Source: Vulcanimicrobiota bacterium (GTDB taxonomy: Bacteria; Vulcanimicrobiota; Xenobia; Xenobiales; JADMJV01). Taken from it: a stretch of DNA of 64,000 bases. Of this stretch, positions 1 through 8,744 are shown piece after piece. The notes under the pieces are model-generated. The model searched no databases. It worked only from the letters and a program-made list of their open reading frames with translations, and was not told the origin of the DNA. The stretch is from assembly GCA_019637395.1 (NCBI GenBank), contig JAHBVR010000012.1:129842-193841 (forward strand), given 5' to 3'. The translations under genes and the position numbers were made by a program. How positions within the stretch are numbered: the stretch's first letter is position 1; every line of letters starts with the position of its first letter.

Positions 1-382
1 TGACGCTCTGGCCGACATTGGCTCCCGTGCCGGCCTGGCCGTGAAAGAAACTGCGAATCTGGCGGTGCTGCTCGCTGATCTCCTGATGGATGCCGTCCAC
101 ATAGATGACCACGCGGCCGTCGGCGTTCACGGCCGAGTCGGGGATATCGGCCGGCAGCTCGGGTTTGGTCTGGCCCGACAGCTTGAGAACGTTAATCTCA
201 CCATTCTGCCTCTGCTCGTAGACGATGCCCTTATGGTCAATCGGCTCTTCCTCGGTGCTCTCGCGCGCCTGAATATAGTCGGCGCTGAGGGCGATGTCCT
301 CGGGCAGGTCCGGCTTGACCGGCGGTGGAGCTTTCGGCCTGGAGAAAAGCTGGGGAGCGGGAGCCTGTAATTTCACCCCCAT
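1..382 (-). CDS. hypothetical protein, N-terminal part only (gene runs off the window edge)
   Basis: Unlisted minus-strand reading frame with ATG at 382-380 (MGVKLQAPAPQLFSRPKAPP...GRVVIYVDGIHQEISEQHRQIRSFFHGQAG...) open to position 1; GC3-rich codons. The listed ORFs 41..370(+) and 237..428(-) look like out-of-frame shadows of this gene. Confidence 0.5.
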   Translation of the reverse strand, partial: MGVKLQAPAPQLFSRPKAPPPVKPDLPEDIALSADYIQARESTEEEPIDHKGIVYEQRQNGEINVLKLSGQTKPELPADIPDSAVNADGRVVIYVDGIHQEISEQHRQIRSFFHGQAGTGANVGQSV

Positions 383-469
383 AGCATGAAGCATCGGCCC
401 GGCCGGCGTCAGGCATGATTTGTAACAACTTGGGAAGGCTCCACGCCTTGGAAACAGGAAGTCCAGTCG

Positions 470-1420
470 ATGTCCCTGGCCCAGCTCCCCTTTGTGGAAG
501 CCCTCCAGCCTTGCCAGCGCATTCTCATCGCCGGTGCCGGCGGCGGTTTTGACGTGGTGGCGGGACTGCCGCTCTACGAATATCTGATGGCCCAGGGCAA
601 ACAGGTATGGCTGGCCAGTCTGTCTTTTTCCGAGCTGACCAGGGCCCGGGGGCGCAAACTGGGAGCCTACATCGTGGAAGTCGACGCCGACTCGGGCGGA
701 GACGACGATTATTTCCCCGAGCGTTACCTCAGTGAATGGCTGGGAGTGGGCGGAGAATATGTTCCTGTCTACTCCTACAAAGCGGTCGGGCCGATGGTCA
801 TGCTGGAAATCTACCAGCAACTGGCCAAAGAGTTCGAGTTGGACACCCTGATCCTGGTCGATGGCGGCACCGACATCTTGATGCGCGGCGACGAGCCGGC
901 CCTGGGCACTCCCATGGAGGATATGTGCAGTCTGGCCGCCGCCGATATGCTGGAAGTGCCCCATAAATTCGTGGTCTGTCTGGGTTTCGGCGTGGACGTC
1001 TTTCACGAGGTCTGTCATCACTATGTGCTCGAGGCCATCGCCGACCTGACCCGTCACGGGGAATATCTCGGGGCCTTCTCGTTGACGGCCGATATGCCCG
1101 AGTTTCAAGCTCTGGTGGAGGCCGTCGACTACATCTGCAGGCGCACTCCCGGCAAGGAGTCCATCGTCATGACCTCGGTGGTGGCGGCCGGACGCGGCTG
1201 CTTTGGCGACTTTCACCCTACCGAACGCACCAGGGACAACAAGTTATTCCTCAATCCGCTGATGTCGATGTATTTTTGTTTTCAACTGAGCGGACTGGCG
1301 CGGCGCTGCTTGTACCTGGATTATCTGAAAGACAAATATGGTCGCTGGGAAGTACACCGGGGCATCTGCAATTTTCTCAGCACAATTACTCCTAGAGAAT
1401 GGAAGCGTTTACCGTTGTGA
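470..1420 (+). CDS. uncharacterised protein with N-terminal glycine-rich GxGGGxD loop (possibly DUF1152-like)
   Basis: 316-aa ORF. Motifs RILIAGAGGGFDVVAGLP and LILVDGGTDILMRGDE suggest a phosphate/nucleotide-binding fold. Its stop overlaps the next gene (TGATG at 1418-1422). Family assignment from memory only, low certainty. Confidence 0.6.
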   Translation: MSLAQLPFVEALQPCQRILIAGAGGGFDVVAGLPLYEYLMAQGKQVWLASLSFSELTRARGRKLGAYIVEVDADSGGDDDYFPERYLSEWLGVGGEYVPVYSYKAVGPMVMLEIYQQLAKEFELDTLILVDGGTDILMRGDEPALGTPMEDMCSLAAADMLEVPHKFVVCLGFGVDVFHEVCHHYVLEAIADLTRHGEYLGAFSLTADMPEFQALVEAVDYICRRTPGKESIVMTSVVAAGRGCFGDFHPTERTRDNKLFLNPLMSMYFCFQLSGLARRCLYLDYLKDKYGRWEVHRGICNFLSTITPREWKRLPL

Positions 1421-1437
1421 TGGAGAAGGCCCCGCCC

Positions 1438-2805
1438 ATGTCGGCCCCCCAACTTGAATTCTACTCCTCGATCGTGGTCCTCACCGGTTCCGGCCTGTCC
1501 GCCCGCTCAGGCGTGCCCGTCGACCCGGACCTGGGCCAAGACGGCGATTGGTCTTCGCTTTACCCCGTTCACATGTTGGCTTTGCAGGCCCAGCCGAACG
1601 ACTGCCACCTGGCCCTGGCCGAATGGGAAAAACGCGTGCTCGAACGGCGCGGCCAGTTCACCCTGCTCACTCACAACACCGACGGCCTGCATCAGCGCGC
1701 CGGTAGCCAAAACGTGGTGGAATTGAATGGCTCCATGCACCGCCTGCGCTGCGCGGAGTGCGATTGGAACGAAGACCGCTTCTGGGAACTCCCGCTACCC
1801 GGATGCCCCCATTGCGGCGGCCAGACCCGCCCCGACGTGGCCGGGTTCGGCCGGGCCGCTCCCAGTCAGGCCGAATGGTCGGCCCAGCGAGCCCTGCGCC
1901 GCTGCGATCTTTTTCTGGCCCTGGCCGTCAGCGAGAATACTCCGCGCGTCAGCGATTTTGCCCATCTGGCGCACTTTGCCAAAGCCCGCAACGTGCTGGT
2001 CAGCCTGGACCATACCCCCCTGCTGGCCGAGGAATTCGACGAGGTCCACGATGCCTCGGCGGAAGATTTCGTGGAGGAAATCTGGAAGAGCGCTCAAGCC
2101 CTTAAACAGCCCAACCGACTGATGCCCCTCAGTCCTCCCGATAGCCCCAACGCACCCCAGGAAATCGCCGATCTGAAGCCGTTGCAGAAATCCTTCACTT
2201 CCGGCTACCTGGCCATCTACGATATCGCCGACTTCAAGACACGTAACCATCTGCTGGGGCACGCCCAGGGCGATCAGGATCTGGAAGAATTTTCCCAGGT
2301 GGCCGCGGCCGTGGGGGTGCAGGCCTGCATGCGCTATTCTCAAGACCAGTTCGTGGTCCTCAGCCCCCGGCTGGAAACTCTGGAGGCGCTCCAGGTGACT
2401 TATGCCAAAGAACAGGAAGTGCGTTCGGGTTATCGGGCCCTGGCCTGCCGCGCCGGCCATCTGCGCAGCCAGGTCATCACTCACAATCTGCGCCTGCGCC
2501 GAGGGGTGCGCGTTGCCTATGTGATGGTCTTCCGGGGTCAGGCGCTGGATGACGCCGCCGCCCAGGTGGCCGAGCGCATCAAACTGGCTCCCATCGACCA
2601 GCTGGTGCCCCTGAACGAGATCCAGGAATCCCCCTACCGGCCCTTCTCCGCCTTGATCGGCGAGTTCTCGGTGCTGCAGTGCCCTTTCTGCGAAGGCACC
2701 GAATTCGAATGGAACTCCGAAGACGTGGCCCACTTCGGACGCGAGGGCAAGTGCCGCCACTGCGGTAGCGACGTGGAATTCGAGAACTTCACGGAAAGCG
2801 CGTGA
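1438..2805 (+). CDS. sirtuin (SIR2)-family domain fused to degenerate GGDEF-like domain and C-terminal Cys4 zinc ribbon
   Basis: Sirtuin motifs VVLTGSGLSARSGVP (GAGIS-like), THNTDGLHQRAGS (TQNIDxLH), zinc tetrad RCAEC...CPHCGG, RPDVAGFG, but the ELHG catalytic His reads ELNG. Followed by YDIADFKTRNHLLGHAQGD...RYSQDQFVVL (GGDEF fold with GGDEF->SQDQF) and CPFCEG...CRHCGS. Start chosen at ATG 1438 (GGAGAAGG SD 8 nt upstream); alternative in-frame starts at 1399/1420. Confidence 0.8.
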   Translation: MSAPQLEFYSSIVVLTGSGLSARSGVPVDPDLGQDGDWSSLYPVHMLALQAQPNDCHLALAEWEKRVLERRGQFTLLTHNTDGLHQRAGSQNVVELNGSMHRLRCAECDWNEDRFWELPLPGCPHCGGQTRPDVAGFGRAAPSQAEWSAQRALRRCDLFLALAVSENTPRVSDFAHLAHFAKARNVLVSLDHTPLLAEEFDEVHDASAEDFVEEIWKSAQALKQPNRLMPLSPPDSPNAPQEIADLKPLQKSFTSGYLAIYDIADFKTRNHLLGHAQGDQDLEEFSQVAAAVGVQACMRYSQDQFVVLSPRLETLEALQVTYAKEQEVRSGYRALACRAGHLRSQVITHNLRLRRGVRVAYVMVFRGQALDDAAAQVAERIKLAPIDQLVPLNEIQESPYRPFSALIGEFSVLQCPFCEGTEFEWNSEDVAHFGREGKCRHCGSDVEFENFTESA

Positions 2806-3245
2806 AGCTGCTGTTTTTTTTGCTGCTCTGCCACGGCTGCGGTCAGTTTTCCACCCGGCTGGCCCTACCGGCTCTCCGCGACTGGTTTCCCCACCTGAAA
2901 AAACCCGACTGGCACCCGCCCGCCTGGGTCTTTGGTAAGGTCTGGTTGCTCCTCTACACACTCATGGGCGTGGCCGGTTGGCGACTTTATTGCGCGAAAT
3001 CAAGTCTGCTGGTGCTCTGGCTGGCCCAGTTGGGCTTCAACCAGCTCTGGACCTATCTTTTCTTCGTCCTCAGGTCCCCCGGCTTAGCTTTAATCGACAA
3101 TTTCTGCCTGTGGATCACGCTGGGAGTTTATGTGATCCTGTGCTGGCCGCTCGACCCGGTAGCCGCCGTCCTGTTGGTGCCGGAATGGCTTTGGATCGGC
3201 TTCGCCAGCACCGTCAACTACGCCACTTGGAAGCTGAATCGTTAA
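2802..3245 (+). CDS. tspO: TspO/MBR family tryptophan-rich sensory protein
   Basis: 147 aa, 5 predicted TM helices, Trp-rich; motifs LKKPDWHPPAWVFGKVWLLLYTLMGVAGW typical of TspO. GTG start overlaps the upstream stop (GTGA at 2802-2805). Confidence 0.85.
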   Translation: MKLLFFLLLCHGCGQFSTRLALPALRDWFPHLKKPDWHPPAWVFGKVWLLLYTLMGVAGWRLYCAKSSLLVLWLAQLGFNQLWTYLFFVLRSPGLALIDNFCLWITLGVYVILCWPLDPVAAVLLVPEWLWIGFASTVNYATWKLNR

Positions 3246-3282
3246 GAGGTATTCAGGTCCGCTTTCGGAATCTCGGGCATCC

Positions 3283-4209
3283 ATGATTTCATCGGCGGAC
3301 CCGATCGCGGCCACCTTCGAGTTTGTGCCGCTGCAGGAATGCCCGCTGTGCGGCCATCCGGAACGTTCTCCGGCCTATCAGCGCAGCTACCAGGGATTGG
3401 AGATCCGCTGGGAGCGCTGCCGGGCCTGTCGTTTCGTATTTCAAAACCCCAAGTTGAGCCGCGCATCGCTCAATTCCATCTATCGCTCCTCCACCTACTG
3501 GAATGTGCAGAAGATGGAGACGCGTAGCGGCCTGCGGCTGGGCTATAGCGACTACGCCAGGGGGGAAGCCTACCGTCTGCGCCAGTCGCGCTGGCGCCTG
3601 CGTCAGATTCACCGCTTCGTGCCTGCGGGTTCGCGCTGGCTGGACGTGGCCTGCGCCACCGGCTTTTTCGTCAAGACTCTGGTGGACGCCGGCATGCAGG
3701 CCTGGGGCGTGGAGCTTTCGGAGCAGATGGCCAGCTACGGTATCGAGCGCTACGGGGTTGACATCGAAGCCCGCGATTTCGACAGCTACACGCCTCCCGG
3801 CCCGCCCCTGCGAGCTCTCTCCATCTGGGGGGCCGATTCGAACTTTTATGACCCGGTGGAGACTTATCGGCACGCCAACCGAATGCTGGGCCCGGACGGC
3901 TGGCTCTTCTTCAACTTCTGGGACTTCGATCACCTCATCCGGCCGCTGCTGGGCGAATTCAAGATCGGCCTGAACGGGCTCTACCAGTTGAATCGCACGA
4001 ACGTCCACCTGTTGCTGGAAAAATCCGGCTTCCAGGCCGAGCTGGTCAAGATGGAGTGGTCGTTTGCCTCGCTGGAAGCCATCCTCTCCCTGACCGGCCG
4101 CTTCCTGCCCTTGCAATGGCTGGGCCATCTGTCCCTGGCCCGGGCCATCTTCCAGCTGCCCACCTTCAGCGGCTTCCTGGTCGCCGCGCGCAAAATCCGT
4201 GAAGCTTAA
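3283..4209 (+). CDS. class I SAM-dependent methyltransferase with N-terminal Cys4 zinc ribbon
   Basis: CPLCGH...CRAC zinc-ribbon followed by motif I LDVACATGFF and a Rossmann-fold MTase core (Methyltransf_13-like architecture). Confidence 0.75.
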   Translation: MISSADPIAATFEFVPLQECPLCGHPERSPAYQRSYQGLEIRWERCRACRFVFQNPKLSRASLNSIYRSSTYWNVQKMETRSGLRLGYSDYARGEAYRLRQSRWRLRQIHRFVPAGSRWLDVACATGFFVKTLVDAGMQAWGVELSEQMASYGIERYGVDIEARDFDSYTPPGPPLRALSIWGADSNFYDPVETYRHANRMLGPDGWLFFNFWDFDHLIRPLLGEFKIGLNGLYQLNRTNVHLLLEKSGFQAELVKMEWSFASLEAILSLTGRFLPLQWLGHLSLARAIFQLPTFSGFLVAARKIREA

Positions 4210-5473
4210 AGGGCTTGCCGCCGCGCTGCTCTTAGCCACCGGGACGGTCTGGGCCCAACCGCATATCCAGATTCGTTTTGAAGCGGGCTCTCAGCGAGCC
4301 TTTCTGGAGGCCGACCCGCTGCCCACGCGTCTGGCCGCCATGCTCAACCGTCAGATCCAGCTGCCCCGCGATTTGCCCATCGTCTATCGCGACGATCGGG
4401 CCGTCAATGCCTGGTACAGTCCCAACAACCACAGCATCACCGTCAGTTATCGGCTGGCCGAGGTATTACGCGGGCAAATGGAGGCCGAGAGCGCTCGCGG
4501 AGCGATGGACTTTATCCTGATGCACGAACTGGGCCACGCTTTAATCGGCGAACTCGACCTGCCTCAGGTCGGCAGTGAGGAAAATGCCGCCGACGAGTTC
4601 ACCACGCTAGTGTGCGCCCAGGCCCTGGGAGAAGAAGGCCGCCGGGTGGCGCTGGCGGGAGCCCGGGCTTTCTGGTTGTTGGGGGATGGGCAATACAACC
4701 TGGCCGCGCTCCCCTTTTACGATGAGCACCGGTTGGAACGGCAGAGGTTCTATACGATTCTGGCCAATCTGGGGGCAGCTGATCCCGCTCTGCGGCCGTC
4801 CCTCGCTCCAATCGTCCCGTACACCCGGCTGCGCGAGGCTCAAGAGAGTTATCCCGGCAAGGTCGACCGCTGGCAGCGCCTGCTGGCCGGAAGCGTGGAA
4901 ACGGTGGCGCCCGGGTCCGGAAAGCTGAAGATTCAGGCTATCGCGCCGCTGCCATTGGCCCGGCTGGCCGGCATTCTCGAGCGCTCTTATCGCTTACCGC
5001 GCGACTGGGTGGTCGAGCAGCGCGACGCGCGCACCCAATTCCTGCCCCTGAGCGGCTATCTGGTCTATGCGGCGGGGGCGAGTGCCGAGGACTTTCTGCT
5101 GGCCTTCTGTTACGGACTGATTAGCGATCTGAAGCTACCCTACACAGGCGAACTCGGAGATGCGGCCGCCGAACTGGCGGCGGTGCTGATGGCCGGTCGC
5201 TCGGACCTGCGCCCTCTGGCCCGATCCGCGCTGGCCCGTTACGAGCAACTGGGCCGGGCCCACAAGAGCGTGCTGGATGTGCAATATTGGGACGCCACCG
5301 CCCAACCCGAGCAACGCTATTTCCAGATGCTCGGCTACCTCTATTGTCAGGACCCCGCCGGCTACCCGGAAGCCAGAACCCGCATCCCCGCGAAACGCCT
5401 TCGCTCGATAGGCTTCGAATATCCCCGCAAAAAGCGCAACTGGGCCCGTCTTCTAAGTCCTTACCAGCGCTAA
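4199..5473 (+). CDS. secreted putative zinc metallopeptidase (DUF4344-like, HExxH)
   Basis: GTG start; signal peptide MKLKGLAAALLLATGTVWAQP; LMHELGHALIGELD...EENAADEFT (HExxH + downstream E) as in DUF4344 putative metallopeptidases. Overlaps upstream MTase stop by 11 nt. Confidence 0.65.
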   Translation: MKLKGLAAALLLATGTVWAQPHIQIRFEAGSQRAFLEADPLPTRLAAMLNRQIQLPRDLPIVYRDDRAVNAWYSPNNHSITVSYRLAEVLRGQMEAESARGAMDFILMHELGHALIGELDLPQVGSEENAADEFTTLVCAQALGEEGRRVALAGARAFWLLGDGQYNLAALPFYDEHRLERQRFYTILANLGAADPALRPSLAPIVPYTRLREAQESYPGKVDRWQRLLAGSVETVAPGSGKLKIQAIAPLPLARLAGILERSYRLPRDWVVEQRDARTQFLPLSGYLVYAAGASAEDFLLAFCYGLISDLKLPYTGELGDAAAELAAVLMAGRSDLRPLARSALARYEQLGRAHKSVLDVQYWDATAQPEQRYFQMLGYLYCQDPAGYPEARTRIPAKRLRSIGFEYPRKKRNWARLLSPYQR

Positions 5474-6642
5474 GCGGACTTTTTAGCTTCCTCGGCTTCC
5501 CGCTTCATTTGCAAGGCCCGCTTGACGGCTTTGCCCGGGTCGACCAGGCCGGCGCCGCCGAGGATGCCGGGGGTGTCTTTCATGCCTTCGGCGGTCTCGA
5601 TCAGCACCTGCTTGACCTGGGCCGGCGTGAGGTCGGGGTTGGCCTGCATGACCAGAGCGGCGCAGCCGGCCGTGGTCGGCGTGGCCATGCTGGTGCCGGA
5701 GAGCAGGCAGTAGTAAGGCGGCAACTTGGTGACGTCGGCGTCCTGCAGCTCCGAATTGGGCGCCAGGAAGCTGACCATATTGACGCCGGGAGCGGCAATG
5801 TCGGGCTTGACCAGACCGTCGCGGGTGGTGGGACCGCGGCTGGAGAAGAAGGCCATGGTGTCGTCTTCGTGGCCGGGAGTGTTCTTGTCGTCATAAGCAC
5901 CGACCGTCAGCGCATCTTTGGTGATAGCCGGGGTGCCGATGGTCTTAACGCCGGGACCGGAGTTGCCGGCCGCGATGATGGGCATCAAACCGGCCTTGAT
6001 GGCGTCGTTGACGGCCTGGGCGATGACGTCGTGCTGCTCGTGCAGGTTGGCGTTGGCTCCCAGGGACATGCTCAGCACTTTGATGCCCAGGCGATCTTTG
6101 TTGTCGATGCACCAGCGGATGCCGCGCGCGATGTTGGACAGCGAACCACCGCCCTCGCCGCCGAGCACTTTGACGCCGACGATGTTGGCTTCATAAGCCG
6201 GACCCTTGAATTTACCGCCGGCCTTGGTGCCGTCGCCGGCCACCAGGCCCGCGCAGTGACTGCCGTGGCCGTTGTCGTCGTAGGCGTTCTCGACGCCGTC
6301 TTTGCCACCGCAGAAATCCTTGAACTCGATGAGGCGGTCACCCAGGTCCGGGTGCGGAGCCACGCCGGTGTCGATGACGGCCACCGTCACGCCTTTGCCG
6401 GTGATGCCCATGTTCCAGGCATCCTGGACCGTCAACACTTCCTTGATGGAGTCGATGCGGTCGGCCGGGCGGGGCAGCGCGTAGGCCAGCGGAGTCAGCT
6501 CCATCGGGGTATGGATGCCGGCTTCGTAGCTCTGGATGAACACTTCGTCCTTGGGCTCGTGAGCTACCGAGGCGGGAGCGTGGAGCTTCTGGGCGTTCTT
6601 GAGCGCTTGCCACTGAGGCGTCTGGTTGGCCTGAACTTGCAT
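5470..6642 (-). CDS. subtilisin-like serine peptidase (S8 family), no obvious signal peptide
   Basis: Catalytic triad motifs VAVIDTGV (Asp), HGSHCAG (His), GTSMATP (Ser). Start set at ATG 6642 (MQVQANQ...) with GGAGG 5 nt upstream; the longer listed ORF start (6759) lacks an RBS. Confidence 0.85.
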   Translation of the reverse strand: MQVQANQTPQWQALKNAQKLHAPASVAHEPKDEVFIQSYEAGIHTPMELTPLAYALPRPADRIDSIKEVLTVQDAWNMGITGKGVTVAVIDTGVAPHPDLGDRLIEFKDFCGGKDGVENAYDDNGHGSHCAGLVAGDGTKAGGKFKGPAYEANIVGVKVLGGEGGGSLSNIARGIRWCIDNKDRLGIKVLSMSLGANANLHEQHDVIAQAVNDAIKAGLMPIIAAGNSGPGVKTIGTPAITKDALTVGAYDDKNTPGHEDDTMAFFSSRGPTTRDGLVKPDIAAPGVNMVSFLAPNSELQDADVTKLPPYYCLLSGTSMATPTTAGCAALVMQANPDLTPAQVKQVLIETAEGMKDTPGILGGAGLVDPGKAVKRALQMKREAEEAKKSA

Positions 6643-6818
6643 GGGTTCCTCCGAAAATTGTTCCGCCGACACCATAGCAAGACCCCCACTACGGAAATGG
6701 AACCAGAGTGTTAACAAGACGCCACCTGTGAACTTGCTCGCCGTGTAACATCGCGGCAAAACCTATTTCCCGGAGGGAGTCCTATACTGCCATCACATAC
6801 ATAGGAGGCACACCCCTC

Positions 6819-8744
6819 ATGAAGGTCCAGTCCGTCAACTACCAGATCGCCAGCAACAAACCGGTCGCCACCAAGGCGCCCGCCCCCAAGACCGAGTCCA
6901 CCCCGGTTTCCAAAGAACCGATGGATGTCGGCACCATTGCTGAGAAAAAGGACTGGACCGTGCTGGTCTACTTGAATGGCAACAACGCCACCGCCAGCCA
7001 GGCCGTGACCACGATGCGCCAGCTCGAGTTCGTGGGCAGCAACGACAAGATGCATATGGCCGCCCAATTGGCCCGCCCCAAAGCGCTTTTGGACAAGTGG
7101 TCGCACGACTGGAACGGGGTGCGCCGCTATGAGGTCAAGCACAACGGACAGGAATTCAACGCGGGCGCGGTGGTCATCGACGGGCTGACCGGCTTTCTAC
7201 CGGGCAAAACCAAAGGCATTAAATCCGATGTGCTCAAGGATATGGGCGACGTGGACATGGGCAAAGCCCAGACCCTGGCCGAATTCCTCGAGTGGGGTGT
7301 CACAAAATACCCGGCCAAGAATTACATGGTGGTGATGCAGGGCCCCTCGGAAGGCGTCTCCGGCATGATGCACGACGTGCTCCACGACTCGCAGATGAGC
7401 GTGGCCGACCTGGGCGCCGCCTTCAAGCAAGTGCACGAGAAGACCGGCAAGAAAATCGACATTGTGGCCCTCAATGGTTCGGCCACCAATTCCTTGGAGG
7501 TGGCCAACGAACTGAAGGACCACGCCAGGCTGCTGGTCGGCTCGCAGGACATCCAGAGCGGGCAGTCGATGCCCCTGGCCATGGTGATGAACGAAATCGC
7601 CAACGTCAGCAAGGACGGCGAACAGAGCCCGCTGACCGTGGCCCAGTACATGTTGCTGATGAATTCGATGGCTCCCGGCGCGCTCTCCATCGTCGACCTG
7701 GACAAAATCGGGCCGGCCAAAGAAGCCTGGAACGATCTCGCCAAAAATCTAATCTCCGCCGGAGTCAGCCGCGACCAGTTGCACAGCATTCTGGAAAAGA
7801 CTCAGGATTTCCAGGGCGCCTCCAAGAACAGCGCCTATGGTAATAGCCGCGACGCCATTCACTTCGCCAAACTGGTCGGCGAAGAAGTGGCCGACGACAA
7901 AGTCAAAGCCGCCGCCGCCAAGGCCGTGGAAGCTCTGGAAGCCTCACTGGTCGGCGACGTGGCCAACGGCAAGCGCATGGAAGAAGCCAACGGTATCTCC
8001 GTCTTCGCCCCCACCAACTATGGTTTCATGCGCCCCGACGGCACCCCCGTCATCAAAGACTCGCTGCGCGACGCCGAGTATTCCAAGACCAACTTCGCTC
8101 AGGAAACCCAGTGGGACGAGCTGCTCAGCGGCGCCGCCAAAGACGGCAAGCTGAACAACACGCTGAAGAAGTTCGGCCTTTCCGAGAATGGCGTGGACAA
8201 AGCCCACGGCCTTTACCACCAGCACATCGGCAAAGTCAATGCAGCCCTCGGATTCGCCGGCATGGCCGGTTACATGAACGGCATCCAGGCCTGGCGCGGA
8301 GCCGACCCCAACGGCTTTATGCTGCTCGGACCGCAGACGGCCGTCTACGCCGGTGTGGTGGGTGCCGGCAACGAAGCCCTCAAAGGCGTGGGCCGTATCA
8401 TCAACGGCGCGGCCAATCTCAAAGACGGCGGCGAAGTGGCCCAGGGTGCCTTCGACGTGGCTTCGGCGGCCGCCAAGGGCGTGGCTAACCTGGGCTACAT
8501 CGTGCCGGCCCTCAAGCCCTACGCCCAGACGGCCGGCATGCTGATGTTCATGTCGCCCTGGCTGCGCAACATCTACGGCGTCTACGATCAGTACAAATCG
8601 ATCAAGGACGGCGTGGAACTGGGCATCGGTGATAACAAAATGTCCACCACCCAGCAGGTGGCTGCCGCCGCCTCGCAATACTACGGCAAGCAGAATCTGC
8701 AGGACCACGCGGAACGCAGCCTGTGGCAAAAATTCGCCGGTTAG
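6819..8744 (+). CDS. clostripain-like cysteine peptidase (C11 family) with Gly/Ala-rich C-terminal region
   Basis: WTVLVYLNGNN motif and overall C11 organisation (His/Cys dyad region HD...ALNGSATNS); AGGAGG RBS upstream; C-terminal ~170 aa is Gly/Ala-rich and low complexity. Confidence 0.75.
   Translation: MKVQSVNYQIASNKPVATKAPAPKTESTPVSKEPMDVGTIAEKKDWTVLVYLNGNNATASQAVTTMRQLEFVGSNDKMHMAAQLARPKALLDKWSHDWNGVRRYEVKHNGQEFNAGAVVIDGLTGFLPGKTKGIKSDVLKDMGDVDMGKAQTLAEFLEWGVTKYPAKNYMVVMQGPSEGVSGMMHDVLHDSQMSVADLGAAFKQVHEKTGKKIDIVALNGSATNSLEVANELKDHARLLVGSQDIQSGQSMPLAMVMNEIANVSKDGEQSPLTVAQYMLLMNSMAPGALSIVDLDKIGPAKEAWNDLAKNLISAGVSRDQLHSILEKTQDFQGASKNSAYGNSRDAIHFAKLVGEEVADDKVKAAAAKAVEALEASLVGDVANGKRMEEANGISVFAPTNYGFMRPDGTPVIKDSLRDAEYSKTNFAQETQWDELLSGAAKDGKLNNTLKKFGLSENGVDKAHGLYHQHIGKVNAALGFAGMAGYMNGIQAWRGADPNGFMLLGPQTAVYAGVVGAGNEALKGVGRIINGAANLKDGGEVAQGAFDVASAAAKGVANLGYIVPALKPYAQTAGMLMFMSPWLRNIYGVYDQYKSIKDGVELGIGDNKMSTTQQVAAAASQYYGKQNLQDHAERSLWQKFAG

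Follow-up and report, generated by a model that had tools for sequence, protein, structure and literature searches.

Five genes crowd onto the + strand between positions 470 and 5473 of the 64,000-nt stretch of DNA analysed here (the window), which is from an Eremiobacterota (Xenobiales) genome. According to Pfam, their products contain, in order, DUF1152; SIR2 with a partial GGDEF; TspO; a methyltransferase; and DUF4344, with an HExxH motif. A first-pass annotation, made from the sequence, had suggested that the five may form one functional module, and the question addressed here is whether they belong together in that way. The explanation that we favour, and to which we give about an even chance of being right, is a small lineage-specific cassette of the DUF1152 and fusion genes (genes 1 and 2), to which the other genes were added later, rather than a five-gene pathway conserved as a whole.

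Layout of the locus

The open reading frame list and inspection of the sequence agree with the tight, co-directional packing originally described: all five genes are present on the + strand, overlapping or with gaps of no more than 37 nt. The TGA stop codon of gene 1 (1418-1420) shares its last letter with an ATG that starts at 1420, making the reported TGATG (1418-1422). The GTGA at 2802-2805 (gene 2/TspO) and the 11-nt overlap at 4199-4209 (gene 4/gene 5; GTG at 4199, TAA at 4207-4209) were also found as described, but the gap between the TspO stop codon (3243-3245) and the ATG at 3283 is 37 nt and not 38 nt. Gene 2 has candidate starts at ATG 1399, 1420 and 1438. Since its homologues begin M[ST]xxQLEFYSS, and a GGAG lies about 8 nt 5' of ATG 1438, the true gene 1/gene 2 junction may be a 17-nt gap instead of an overlap; at this junction L090 and L091 have a 4-nt overlap. 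A single computation on four of the five genes gave dN/dS values of 0.03-0.19, ie purifying selection.

No promoter-like sites were found on the + strand within the five-gene block, and terminator-like sites are rarer there than in shuffled sequences (4 compared to 6.1). A hairpin and T-run at 2787-2821, where gene 2 meets TspO, were considered as an intrinsic terminator or attenuator. The idea was rejected, since the hairpin lacks conservation and the T-run consists of Leu and Phe codons of TspO helix 1. A search of positions 1-7000 for riboswitches or leader RNAs, such as those responding to c-di-GMP, gave no Rfam match at E ≤ 1.

The block is flanked on the 5' side by the 5' part of a divergent, conserved gene of an uncharacterised family (1..382, - strand, from the minus-strand translation), which is cut by the window edge and lies outside the cassette. 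It encodes about 330 aa in relatives and is 76% identical to 'unk336' of L001. Between its ATG (382, alternatively 394) and ATG 470 is the intergenic region presumed to hold the gene 1 promoter (383..469), where neither an Rfam match nor, on the + strand, a consensus sigma-70 site was seen. On the 3' side the block is bounded by a convergent Peptidase_S8 gene (PF00082; 5470..6759, - strand), a conserved flank that is syntenic in L001, L002, L003, L010, L090 and L091. Bacterial genes on the same strand with gaps of less than 40 nt are usually co-transcribed. As the five genes are genuine and lie close together on one strand, their co-transcription in this genome is plausible.

Gene order in related loci

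Nine distinct loci with the fusion gene, the window included, were compared. DUF1152 immediately precedes the fusion in eight (L005 has the fusion without DUF1152), and TspO comes after the fusion in six, giving the order DUF1152-fusion-TspO in six of the nine. The methyltransferase is found in three loci and DUF4344 in one, the window. The check on gene order proposed in the first-pass annotation therefore upheld the DUF1152-fusion adjacency and, in most loci, TspO, but not the last two genes, and the idea of one five-gene functional module did not survive it. The spacing of DUF1152 and the fusion is kept at -4 to +34 nt despite dS values above 1, and the pair survives replacement of the upstream side in L091 and of the downstream side in L092. 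All conserved instances of the pair lie in one Xenobiales synteny block, and the flanking genes of that block (unk336, S8, C11, unk182 and unk379) are conserved equally well as the pair, with or without TspO. Because there is a single block, flanks included, conservation of the pair is not cleanly separable from shared ancestry, and the adjacency may be inherited rather than selected.

Gene 3 (2802..3245, + strand) encodes a TspO/MBR membrane protein of 147 aa, as had been recognised (TspO_MBR, PF03073, E = 5.5e-37). The match is full-length, with 127 bits against a cut-off of 24 over profile positions 1-144 of 145, while the protein falls below the cut-off of the NCBIfam alphaproteobacterial TspO equivalog (95 compared to 180 bits). 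The known bacterial TspO proteins (Rhodobacter, Bacillus cereus) bind and degrade tetrapyrroles and take part in stress and oxygen signalling. No tetrapyrrole biosynthesis genes adjoin TspO in the stretch examined, and none of the papers searched links TspO with Eremiobacterota. In the closest relative, L010, about 415 nt have been cleanly deleted, removing TspO except for remnants of both ends, and DUF1152, the fusion and the methyltransferase are intact and constrained there. TspO is thus a frequent yet dispensable member of the cassette, which weakens the case for a porphyrin- or redox-sensing role.

Gene 4 (3283..4209, + strand; 308 aa) is a class I SAM-dependent methyltransferase with the N-terminal CxxC...CxxC zinc ribbon already noted on first reading. 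It matches Pfam Methyltransf_23/25/11, with E = 4e-09 and 36.8 bits for Methyltransf_23 (cut-off 27), and its motif I, LDVACATG, was read at 3640-3663. It is a variable accessory gene: among the fusion loci only the window, L010 and L001 carry it, and an unrelated gene of 224 aa occupies the corresponding position in L002. The leader between TspO and the methyltransferase is conserved in L001 and L010.

Gene 5 (4199..5473, + strand; 424 aa) encodes a DUF4344 protein, a putative secreted metallopeptidase. The match to PF14247 ('putative metallopeptidase') has E = 3.7e-48 and 164.6 bits (cut-off 29.6), and the signal peptide and an HExxH motif (HELGH, 4523-4537) bear out its earlier description as a secreted HExxH protein. 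The gene is a window-specific insertion that none of the other eight fusion loci has, and the boundaries of the indel were mapped. A homologue with 70% identity occurs in L093 in an unrelated context and with its own leader. Both GC and GC3 of the gene resemble those of its neighbours, so that composition does not decide on a foreign origin.

The DUF1152 protein

Gene 1 (470..1420, + strand; 316 aa) had been described as possibly DUF1152-like, and a profile search with its product placed it in that family (PF06626, E = 6e-20, 72 bits, cut-off 27), the best stretch being residues 111-295. The family has more than 3,600 homologues, with alignments that span 98-100% of the query, and there are at least 516 matches in GTDB species genomes. 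The family alignment has two best-conserved signatures, both invariant: GAGGGFD (533-553 in gene 1) and DGGTD (860-874), each of them picked out on first reading (the former as GxGGGxD). GFGVDxFHxVCHH (983-1021) is a further signature motif. The dN/dS of gene 1 is 0.03-0.13. DUF1152 is not mentioned in any of the papers searched, and it has no match among PDB sequences.

The AF2 model (pLDDT 90) has a Rossmann-like fold, with invariant Asp, Glu, His and Cys residues clustered at the C-terminal strand ends. This model suggests that DUF1152 may be a metal-dependent, hydrolase-type enzyme remotely like LmbE; hydrolase activity is a guess, because the resemblance is remote and there is no Pfam PIG-L signal (no match to PF02585 at E ≤ 10 among 18 DUF1152 members). 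When compared with the LmbE/PIG-L-like deacetylases MshB, LnmX, Dbv21, diacetylchitobiose deacetylase and TT1542, the model aligned over about 170 of 316 residues at approximately 9% identity and a TM score of 0.3-0.46. The zinc motifs of those enzymes, AHPDD and HxxH, are missing as such, with GAGGGFD and FHxVCHH in their stead. Membership of LmbE/PIG-L, or kinship by sequence with any solved structure, is unsupported, and the likeness is at the level of the fold only. Matches to CARF domains are generic Rossmann matches ranked below those to LmbE.

In other phyla DUF1152 genes are solitary. As no neighbour recurs across about 80 loci, DUF1152 does not need a partner of this kind; among 78 same-strand neighbours in the census, no family was seen in more than two loci. 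An ADP-ribosylglycohydrolase was noted near DUF1152 in 2-3 loci, and PilZ in two related loci, each of which is at most a hint of a partner.

The fusion protein

Gene 2, taken from ATG 1438 (1438..2805, + strand; 455 aa), begins with a Sir2-like domain, continues with a GGDEF-like palm domain and ends in a zinc ribbon (Pfam SIR2 and GGDEF, and alignments), and the proposal of a pseudo-sirtuin/GGDEF fusion was well founded. Full-length homologues are rare, only 13 being found among 5.8 billion proteins. The dN/dS is 0.05-0.19, and the AF2 model is moderate (pLDDT 72, pTM 0.43).

The SIR2 match (PF02146) has E = 2e-22 and 80 bits, compared to a cut-off of 24. Residues 1-228 have their top sequence and fold matches in the CobB-type (class III/U) sirtuin deacylases Sir2Af1, Sir2Tm and E. 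coli CobB (phmmer 1.6e-23, Foldseek 7e-15), which places the domain in the Sir2 fold and sequence family. The domain keeps GxGxS, both the N and the D of QNxD, 'DGLHQRAGS' and a Zn module of four Cys (C105, C108, C123 and C126, all invariant). The general-base His of the xLHG motif (H116 in Sir2Af1/Sir2Tm) is lost: in the alignment to 1m2n/1m2g, HLHGS is replaced by ELNGS, with Asn97 (codon AAT, 1726..1728, + strand) at the catalytic position. All four canonical sirtuins in the alignment have His there, and the 13 fusion homologues have N, A, C, K, Y or R. The cofactor loop GAGxSxxSGIPxFR reads GSGLSARSGVPVDPDLG in gene 2, the FR being missing and the next helical segment, part of the helical small domain, deleted; the sirtuin GTS is AVS. 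Unlike the CobB-type enzymes, the domain is also fused to the palm domain and zinc ribbon. Without the catalytic His and the FR loop, the sirtuin domain is, as judged from its sequence, catalytically degenerate. SIR2-based anti-phage defence (Thoeris ThsA, DSR, SIR2-HerA etc.) was rejected as an identity for the protein: there is no PADLOC match, the domain belongs to the deacylase type, and it lacks the His that NADase activity requires. Its nearest structures in Foldseek are deacylase-type sirtuins, and PADLOC and Rfam returned no match for genes 1-3.

The palm core extends from DIADFKTRNHLLGHAQGD through RYSQDQF (2221..2352, + strand), with SQDQF in place of GGDEF. The match to PF00990 (1.7e-06, 28.3 bits, cut-off 23.8) is partial, with profile positions 31-105 of 161 covering the N-terminal half of the domain. 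A profile of the palm family found the solved diguanylate cyclases (4wxw, DgcB, PleD, WspR, DgcZ) with E values down to 1e-10, and homology to the GGDEF domain, a palm fold, is clear. SQDQF aligns with GGEEF, placing Gln at the fourth position, and the both-acidic GG[D/E]EF motif is absent. The Glu at that position is essential in diguanylate cyclases; it is missing throughout the palm family, in which the motif is xG[DE]xW, and many members have Asn for the first metal-binding Asp. The Asn and Asp that contact guanine have conserved equivalents. Inspection of the translation upstream of the motif gave VGVQ at the place of the I-site, with no RxxD.

The palm family also differs from GGDEF diguanylate cyclases in its divergent C-terminal half (RAxRCxY) and in a four-Cys zinc ribbon that is always appended. 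In gene 2 this is CPFC ... CRHC (2680..2763, + strand), and the Cys residues are invariant in the fusion clade and the standalone family. By these features the palm/zinc-ribbon proteins form a distinct, unnamed subfamily, mostly standalone and of about 220 aa. There is no Pfam model for them, members matching only PF00990 and only partially, and no name or description was found. The other members are anonymous metagenomic proteins of about 220 aa. A metagenome scan gave five loci with standalone relatives, and neither of the two usable ones has DUF1152, Sir2 or TspO nearby.

In E. coli a sirtuin has been described as functionally linked to a GGDEF protein: CobB is bound and inhibited by c-di-GMP, and itself deacetylates DgcZ (YdeH) (bioRxiv 10.1101/362293). 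Gene 2 unites both domain types in one chain, whereas CobB and DgcZ are separately encoded and both active. Since both gene 2 domains are without key catalytic residues, the analogy extends at most to ligand cross-talk.

Interpretation

In the cassette that we favour, the core would be a Xenobiales-specific pair of genes 1 and 2, which very probably share a transcript that starts in the divergent promoter region 5' of 470. Gene 1 would supply a putative DUF1152 hydrolase, remotely LmbE-like, and gene 2 a non-catalytic, ligand-binding adaptor of three parts. The sirtuin part would retain its NAD-ribose contacts (GxGxS, N80 and D82) and Zn module after loss of the catalytic His and FR loop; the palm part would retain guanine recognition through its Asn and Asp, with neither the second acidic residue of GGDEF nor an I-site; the zinc ribbon would be the third. 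Such a protein would act as a sensor of an NAD/ADP-ribose-like nucleotide, a guanine nucleotide or both, and would modulate or target its DUF1152 partner. TspO would have been appended to the pair in the common ancestor, as an optional member. The methyltransferase, and most recently DUF4344, would then have been inserted between TspO and the convergent S8 gene, riding on the transcript of the pair outside any conserved pathway.

A true five-gene operon, in which a nucleotide sensor, TspO, a methyltransferase and a secreted peptidase serve one porphyrin/redox stress pathway, would account for the short gaps, the two overlaps, the lack of internal promoter or terminator signals, the purifying selection and the conserved leader in L001 and L010. 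It is largely refuted by the comparison of gene order, and we regard it as most improbable: DUF4344 has its nearest homologue in a different context and is missing from the eight other fusion loci, six of the nine lack the methyltransferase, L002 has an unrelated gene in its place, and the closest relative deleted TspO while its other three genes stayed intact and constrained. Possible, if doubtful, is that there is no functional link at all, ie that unrelated neighbours were compacted on one strand and that the DUF1152-fusion(-TspO) order reflects vertical inheritance of a synteny block in related Xenobiales. The equally conserved flanks, the solitary DUF1152 genes of other phyla and the L005 fusion without DUF1152 are consistent with this. 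Against it, the pair keeps its overlap or near-abutment at saturated synonymous divergence and outlasts independent indels on both sides (L091, L092, L010 and the window), and gaps this short usually mean co-transcription.

The two remaining readings give the pair a more specific function. Gene 2 could be an active signalling enzyme whose palm uses a non-canonical xxDxF/xGDxW site to make a nucleotide second messenger and is controlled by the NAD-sensing, sirtuin-like part, with a Rossmann/CARF-like DUF1152 as receptor or effector. This is quite unlikely given the family-wide loss of the fourth-position Glu, the frequent Asn at the first metal site, the low rank of the generic CARF matches, the lack of a PADLOC match and the fact that DUF1152 mostly has no palm-domain neighbour. 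Unlikely too is an unrecognised nucleotide-sensing module in which a sirtuin-derived pseudoenzyme that binds NAD/ADP-ribose, fused to the GGDEF-derived palm and zinc ribbon, would tie guanine-nucleotide signalling to the NAD/redox state of the cell and regulate DUF1152 as a hydrolase of LmbE fold, with TspO as an optional membrane input. Were such a module real, it would be the first functional context for DUF1152, a family found in hundreds of species of many phyla.

Because the five-gene pathway does not hold, the practical value of the locus is as a pointer for experiments and not as a discovery in itself. If the favoured DUF1152-fusion pairing is functional, it would open a first way into DUF1152 and the palm/zinc-ribbon proteins, both of them uncharacterised. 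The fusion may be useful for ideas on pseudoenzyme sensors and on the reported cross-talk of CobB and c-di-GMP, and it is a clear natural case of a sirtuin fold kept under strong purifying selection after loss of the catalytic His.

Organisation of the five-gene block

Five consecutive open reading frames are present on the plus strand where the first-pass annotation had placed a translationally coupled operon, and all of its domain calls were confirmed with Pfam. Gene 1 (470-1420) encodes a DUF1152 protein (6e-20), gene 2 (start at 1399, 1420 or 1438, end at 2805) a fusion of SIR2 and partial GGDEF domains (2e-22 and 1.7e-06), gene 3 (2802-3245) a full-length TspO_MBR protein (5.5e-37), gene 4 (3283-4209) a Methyltransf_23 protein (4e-09) and gene 5 (4199-5473) a DUF4344 'putative metallopeptidase' (3.7e-48). 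Every one of the five genes falls in a known Pfam family; the novelty lies in an architecture of gene 2 that is restricted to one clade, and in the stable pairing of that gene with DUF1152. By name, the closest proteins stem from Candidatus Eremiobacteraeota, Vulcanimicrobiota and Xenobiales MAGs.

The TGATG proposed between genes 1 and 2 (TGA at 1418-1420, ATG at 1420), the GTGA at 2802-2805 between gene 2 and TspO, and the 11-nt overlap of genes 4 and 5 (GTG at 4199, TAA at 4207-4209) are all in the sequence, as is the short gap before 3283, which is 37 nt long and not 38 nt. Homologues of gene 2 start M[ST]xxQLEFYSS, and gene callers set its start to match. Because these N-termini, together with a GGAG about 8 nt 5' of the ATG at 1438, favour that codon, the first junction in the window may be a 17-nt gap in place of the overlap. 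In two loci from other genomes, L090 and L091, the two genes share 4 nt.

A divergent gene which runs off the window edge borders the block upstream; downstream lies a convergent Peptidase_S8 gene (5470-6759, minus strand) and after it a Peptidase_C11 gene. No promoter-like sites were found on the plus strand within the five genes, terminator-like sites were rarer there than in shuffled sequence, and positions 1-7000 gave zero matches to Rfam families. The spacing makes it quite likely that this genome would co-transcribe genes 1-3 at a minimum, and probably the entire set.

Gene order across the fusion loci

Nine distinct loci encoding the fusion were recovered, the window included. DUF1152 precedes the fusion gene in eight of these, TspO follows it in six and the methyltransferase is present in three, while DUF4344 occurs in the window only. 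The five genes therefore do not form a conserved unit, and the five-gene porphyrin/redox-sensing module originally put forward was not borne out. L001 has the first four genes in the order of the window. L003 (with a second contig, L004, arranged alike), L090 and L091 have DUF1152, fusion and TspO, and in L002 the same three genes are followed by an unrelated 224-aa ORF (11166-11840), which is without a Pfam match and fills the methyltransferase position of the window, L001 and L010. In L010, whose DUF1152 is 97% identical to that of the window, the fusion gene is followed directly by the methyltransferase; in L092 the DUF1152-fusion pair is followed by unrelated genes, and in L005 the fusion gene, lacking DUF1152, adjoins a DUF1206 gene.

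The absence of TspO from L010 is a clean deletion: about 16 nt stand in place of about 415 nt (window 2817-3231), and both ends of the gene, as well as the methyltransferase leader, are still present. The DUF4344 gene also sits in an indel: where the window has 4199-5492, L001 has 122 nt and L010 has 327 nt. Its nearest non-identical homologue (L093, 70% identical) has its own leader and unrelated genes downstream. The slot between TspO and the S8 gene appears to be a hotspot of gene gain and loss.

The fusion protein

A search of 5.8 billion clustered proteins found only 13 full-length homologues of the gene 2 product, 54-93% identical. Both sequence (phmmer, 1.6e-23 to Sir2Af1) and fold identify the N-terminal half of this product as a deacylase-type sirtuin. 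It retains the GxGxS loop, both N80 and D82 from the QNxD motif, the stretch 'DGLHQRAGS' and the zinc module with its four Cys. The position of the catalytic histidine (H116 in Sir2Af1) is occupied by Asn97 in the window and by N, A, C, K, Y or R in its relatives, whereas the canonical sirtuins in the alignment all retain His; the cofactor loop has lost its 'FR', and the helical segment next in the chain is deleted as well. Mutation of this histidine abolishes deacetylation in studied sirtuins, and the label 'pseudo-sirtuin' in the first-pass annotation is thus well founded. Structures of H116Y and H116A mutant sirtuins were among the structure matches.

The C-terminal 227 residues, searched separately against 1.84 billion representatives, gave 83 matches, about 50 of them standalone proteins of 200-250 aa covering the whole query. 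The 'degenerate GGDEF' of gene 2 is here placed in a coherent, undescribed family with a GGDEF-derived palm, the motifs [ND][ILF]AD[FT]KRRNxHLG[HY], RxxG[DE]xW and RAxRCxY, and a terminal CPFC...CxxC zinc ribbon. The family profile aligns with solved diguanylate cyclases, 'RvaGdkW' lying opposite 'RYGGEEF'. The essential Glu at the fourth position is missing throughout the family, and many members carry Asn in place of the first metal-binding Asp; residues equivalent to the Asn and Asp that contact guanine are conserved. In the Xenobiales fusion the GGDEF site reads SQDQF, and an RxxD I-site is absent. The Sir2 and palm/zinc-ribbon combination has arisen or persisted more than once, because a distant family member, the metagenome protein P0204 (700 aa), is also Sir2-fused, with the sirtuin motifs ELHGN, TQNVDGLH and GTSG intact. 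In this second, distant fusion of Sir2, palm and zinc ribbon (P0204/P0262, 700 aa, Logan metagenome), LPTYR looks intact along with the other three motifs. At the two loci with usable context, none of DUF1152, Sir2 or TspO was found near the standalone palm/zinc-ribbon genes.

The most economical reading of the gene 2 product would be a ligand-binding pseudoenzyme, with NAD or an ADP-ribose-like molecule as the possible ligand of the sirtuin part and a guanine nucleotide as that of the palm part. Cross-talk between a sirtuin and a GGDEF protein is documented in the CobB/c-di-GMP/DgcZ loop of E. coli (bioRxiv 10.1101/362293), where, unlike the putative pseudoenzyme, both partners are active enzymes.

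DUF1152 and its neighbours

The DUF1152 family has more than 3,600 matches in the protein database and at least 516 confirmed matches among GTDB species genomes, covering Myxococcota, Planctomycetota, Actinomycetota, Acidobacteriota, Bacteroidota, methanotrophs and others; no mention of DUF1152 was found in the literature searched. The GAGGGFD and DGGTD motifs picked out in the first reading proved to be its most conserved signatures, and R139, G140, D141, E142, E150, D151, D176, H179, C182 and H183 are also invariant. We infer, as a working view and not as a membership, that DUF1152 is an LmbE-like metal-dependent hydrolase.

DUF1152 is normally solitary, since among 78 immediate same-strand neighbours in other lineages no family occurred more than twice; only in one Xenobiales lineage is it paired with the fusion. 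In closer Eremiobacterota relatives the adjoining gene encodes a PilZ protein (L007, L008), a CheB-CheR-PAS protein (L006) or a PLD protein (L009). The PilZ (c-di-GMP receptor) genes (L007:5542-5910, L008:5549-5971) are on the same strand, immediately 5' of DUF1152, and set within an LpxB/LpxC lipid A cluster on two related Eremiobacterota-like contigs. The MAG containing L001 has a second DUF1152 paralogue, 46% identical (L087, JAFKGI010000043), with no adjoining fusion gene, so that the fusion-linked DUF1152 is a specific paralogue. ADP-ribosylglycohydrolase (PF03747) genes lie two or fewer genes from DUF1152 in L036 (3190-4263), L040 and L076, from Planctomycetota and Verrucomicrobiota; with the Sir2-like partner in Xenobiales, they give a second, faint hint of an NAD/ADP-ribose connection.

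Functional link or common descent

An unknown 336-aa gene, DUF1152, the fusion, TspO, the S8 and C11 genes and two more unknown genes are all syntenic across these genomes, and the conservation of the first three cannot therefore be fully separated from vertical inheritance. That these neighbours were kept purely by descent gains from the flanks being equally part of one syntenic neighbourhood, but we consider it rather unlikely: the spacing of DUF1152 and fusion gene is held at -4 to +34 nt although synonymous divergence exceeds 1, and the pair outlasts independent rearrangements on both sides (L091, L092), which together argue for a real link. TspO was lost jointly with the S8 and C11 genes in L092 and alone in L010. 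Purifying selection acts on all genes (dN/dS 0.03-0.19). Between the window and L010, dS is uneven, 0.81-0.87 for DUF1152, fusion and methyltransferase (470-4209) against 0.34-0.58 for S8 and C11 (5470-8744); recombination or codon-usage constraint are possible causes.

There is about an even chance that DUF1152 and fusion form a functional pair, in which the non-catalytic, nucleotide-binding fusion would regulate or target the DUF1152 enzyme. That gene 2 encodes an active non-canonical cyclase, for which DUF1152 would be the receptor, is improbable in a family which lacks the fourth-position Glu, and a true pathway of all five genes is more improbable still, given the sporadic methyltransferase, the window-specific DUF4344 and the TspO deletion. 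The locus offers a concrete experimental entry point to DUF1152 and to a putative pseudo-sirtuin sensor.

The remaining genes and the flanks

Gene 3 encodes a standard TspO/MBR protein (Pfam), scoring under the alphaproteobacterial equivalog cut-off, and the gene 4 methyltransferase carries a CxxC...CxxC ribbon at its N-terminus, with motif I recognisable in its sequence. PADLOC gave no match for genes 1-3 and weak generic matches only for genes 4 and 5. The DUF4344 product, which matches a protein from a 'Candidatus Eremiobacteraeota bacterium' MAG at 100% identity, has a plausible Sec signal peptide by inspection (MKLKGLAAALLLATGTVWA) and an HELGH motif. In L093 a 20-nt palindrome, GTTTGATTCTAGAATCAGAC (66-85), operator-like in look, lies just 5' of the DUF4344 homologue; the window copy, which overlaps the methyltransferase gene, has no upstream counterpart.

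The DUF4344 gene adjoins two further peptidase genes, S8 and C11 (clostripain-like; 6819-8744, plus strand), and in function it may belong with these more naturally than with genes 1-3. With two unknown genes (8882-9430 and 9490-10635, plus strand) these form a block whose order is kept across Xenobiales loci at 80-96% protein identity, and the window-specific DUF4344 gene is inserted directly beside it. On the other flank, the divergent gene at 1-382 (minus strand) is conserved, and relatives have it at a length of about 330 aa. It has no Pfam match on record and contains a THSGGG-type motif resembling the nucleophile elbow of alpha/beta-hydrolases. Its synteny with the cassette extends to L001, L002, L003, L010 and L090.
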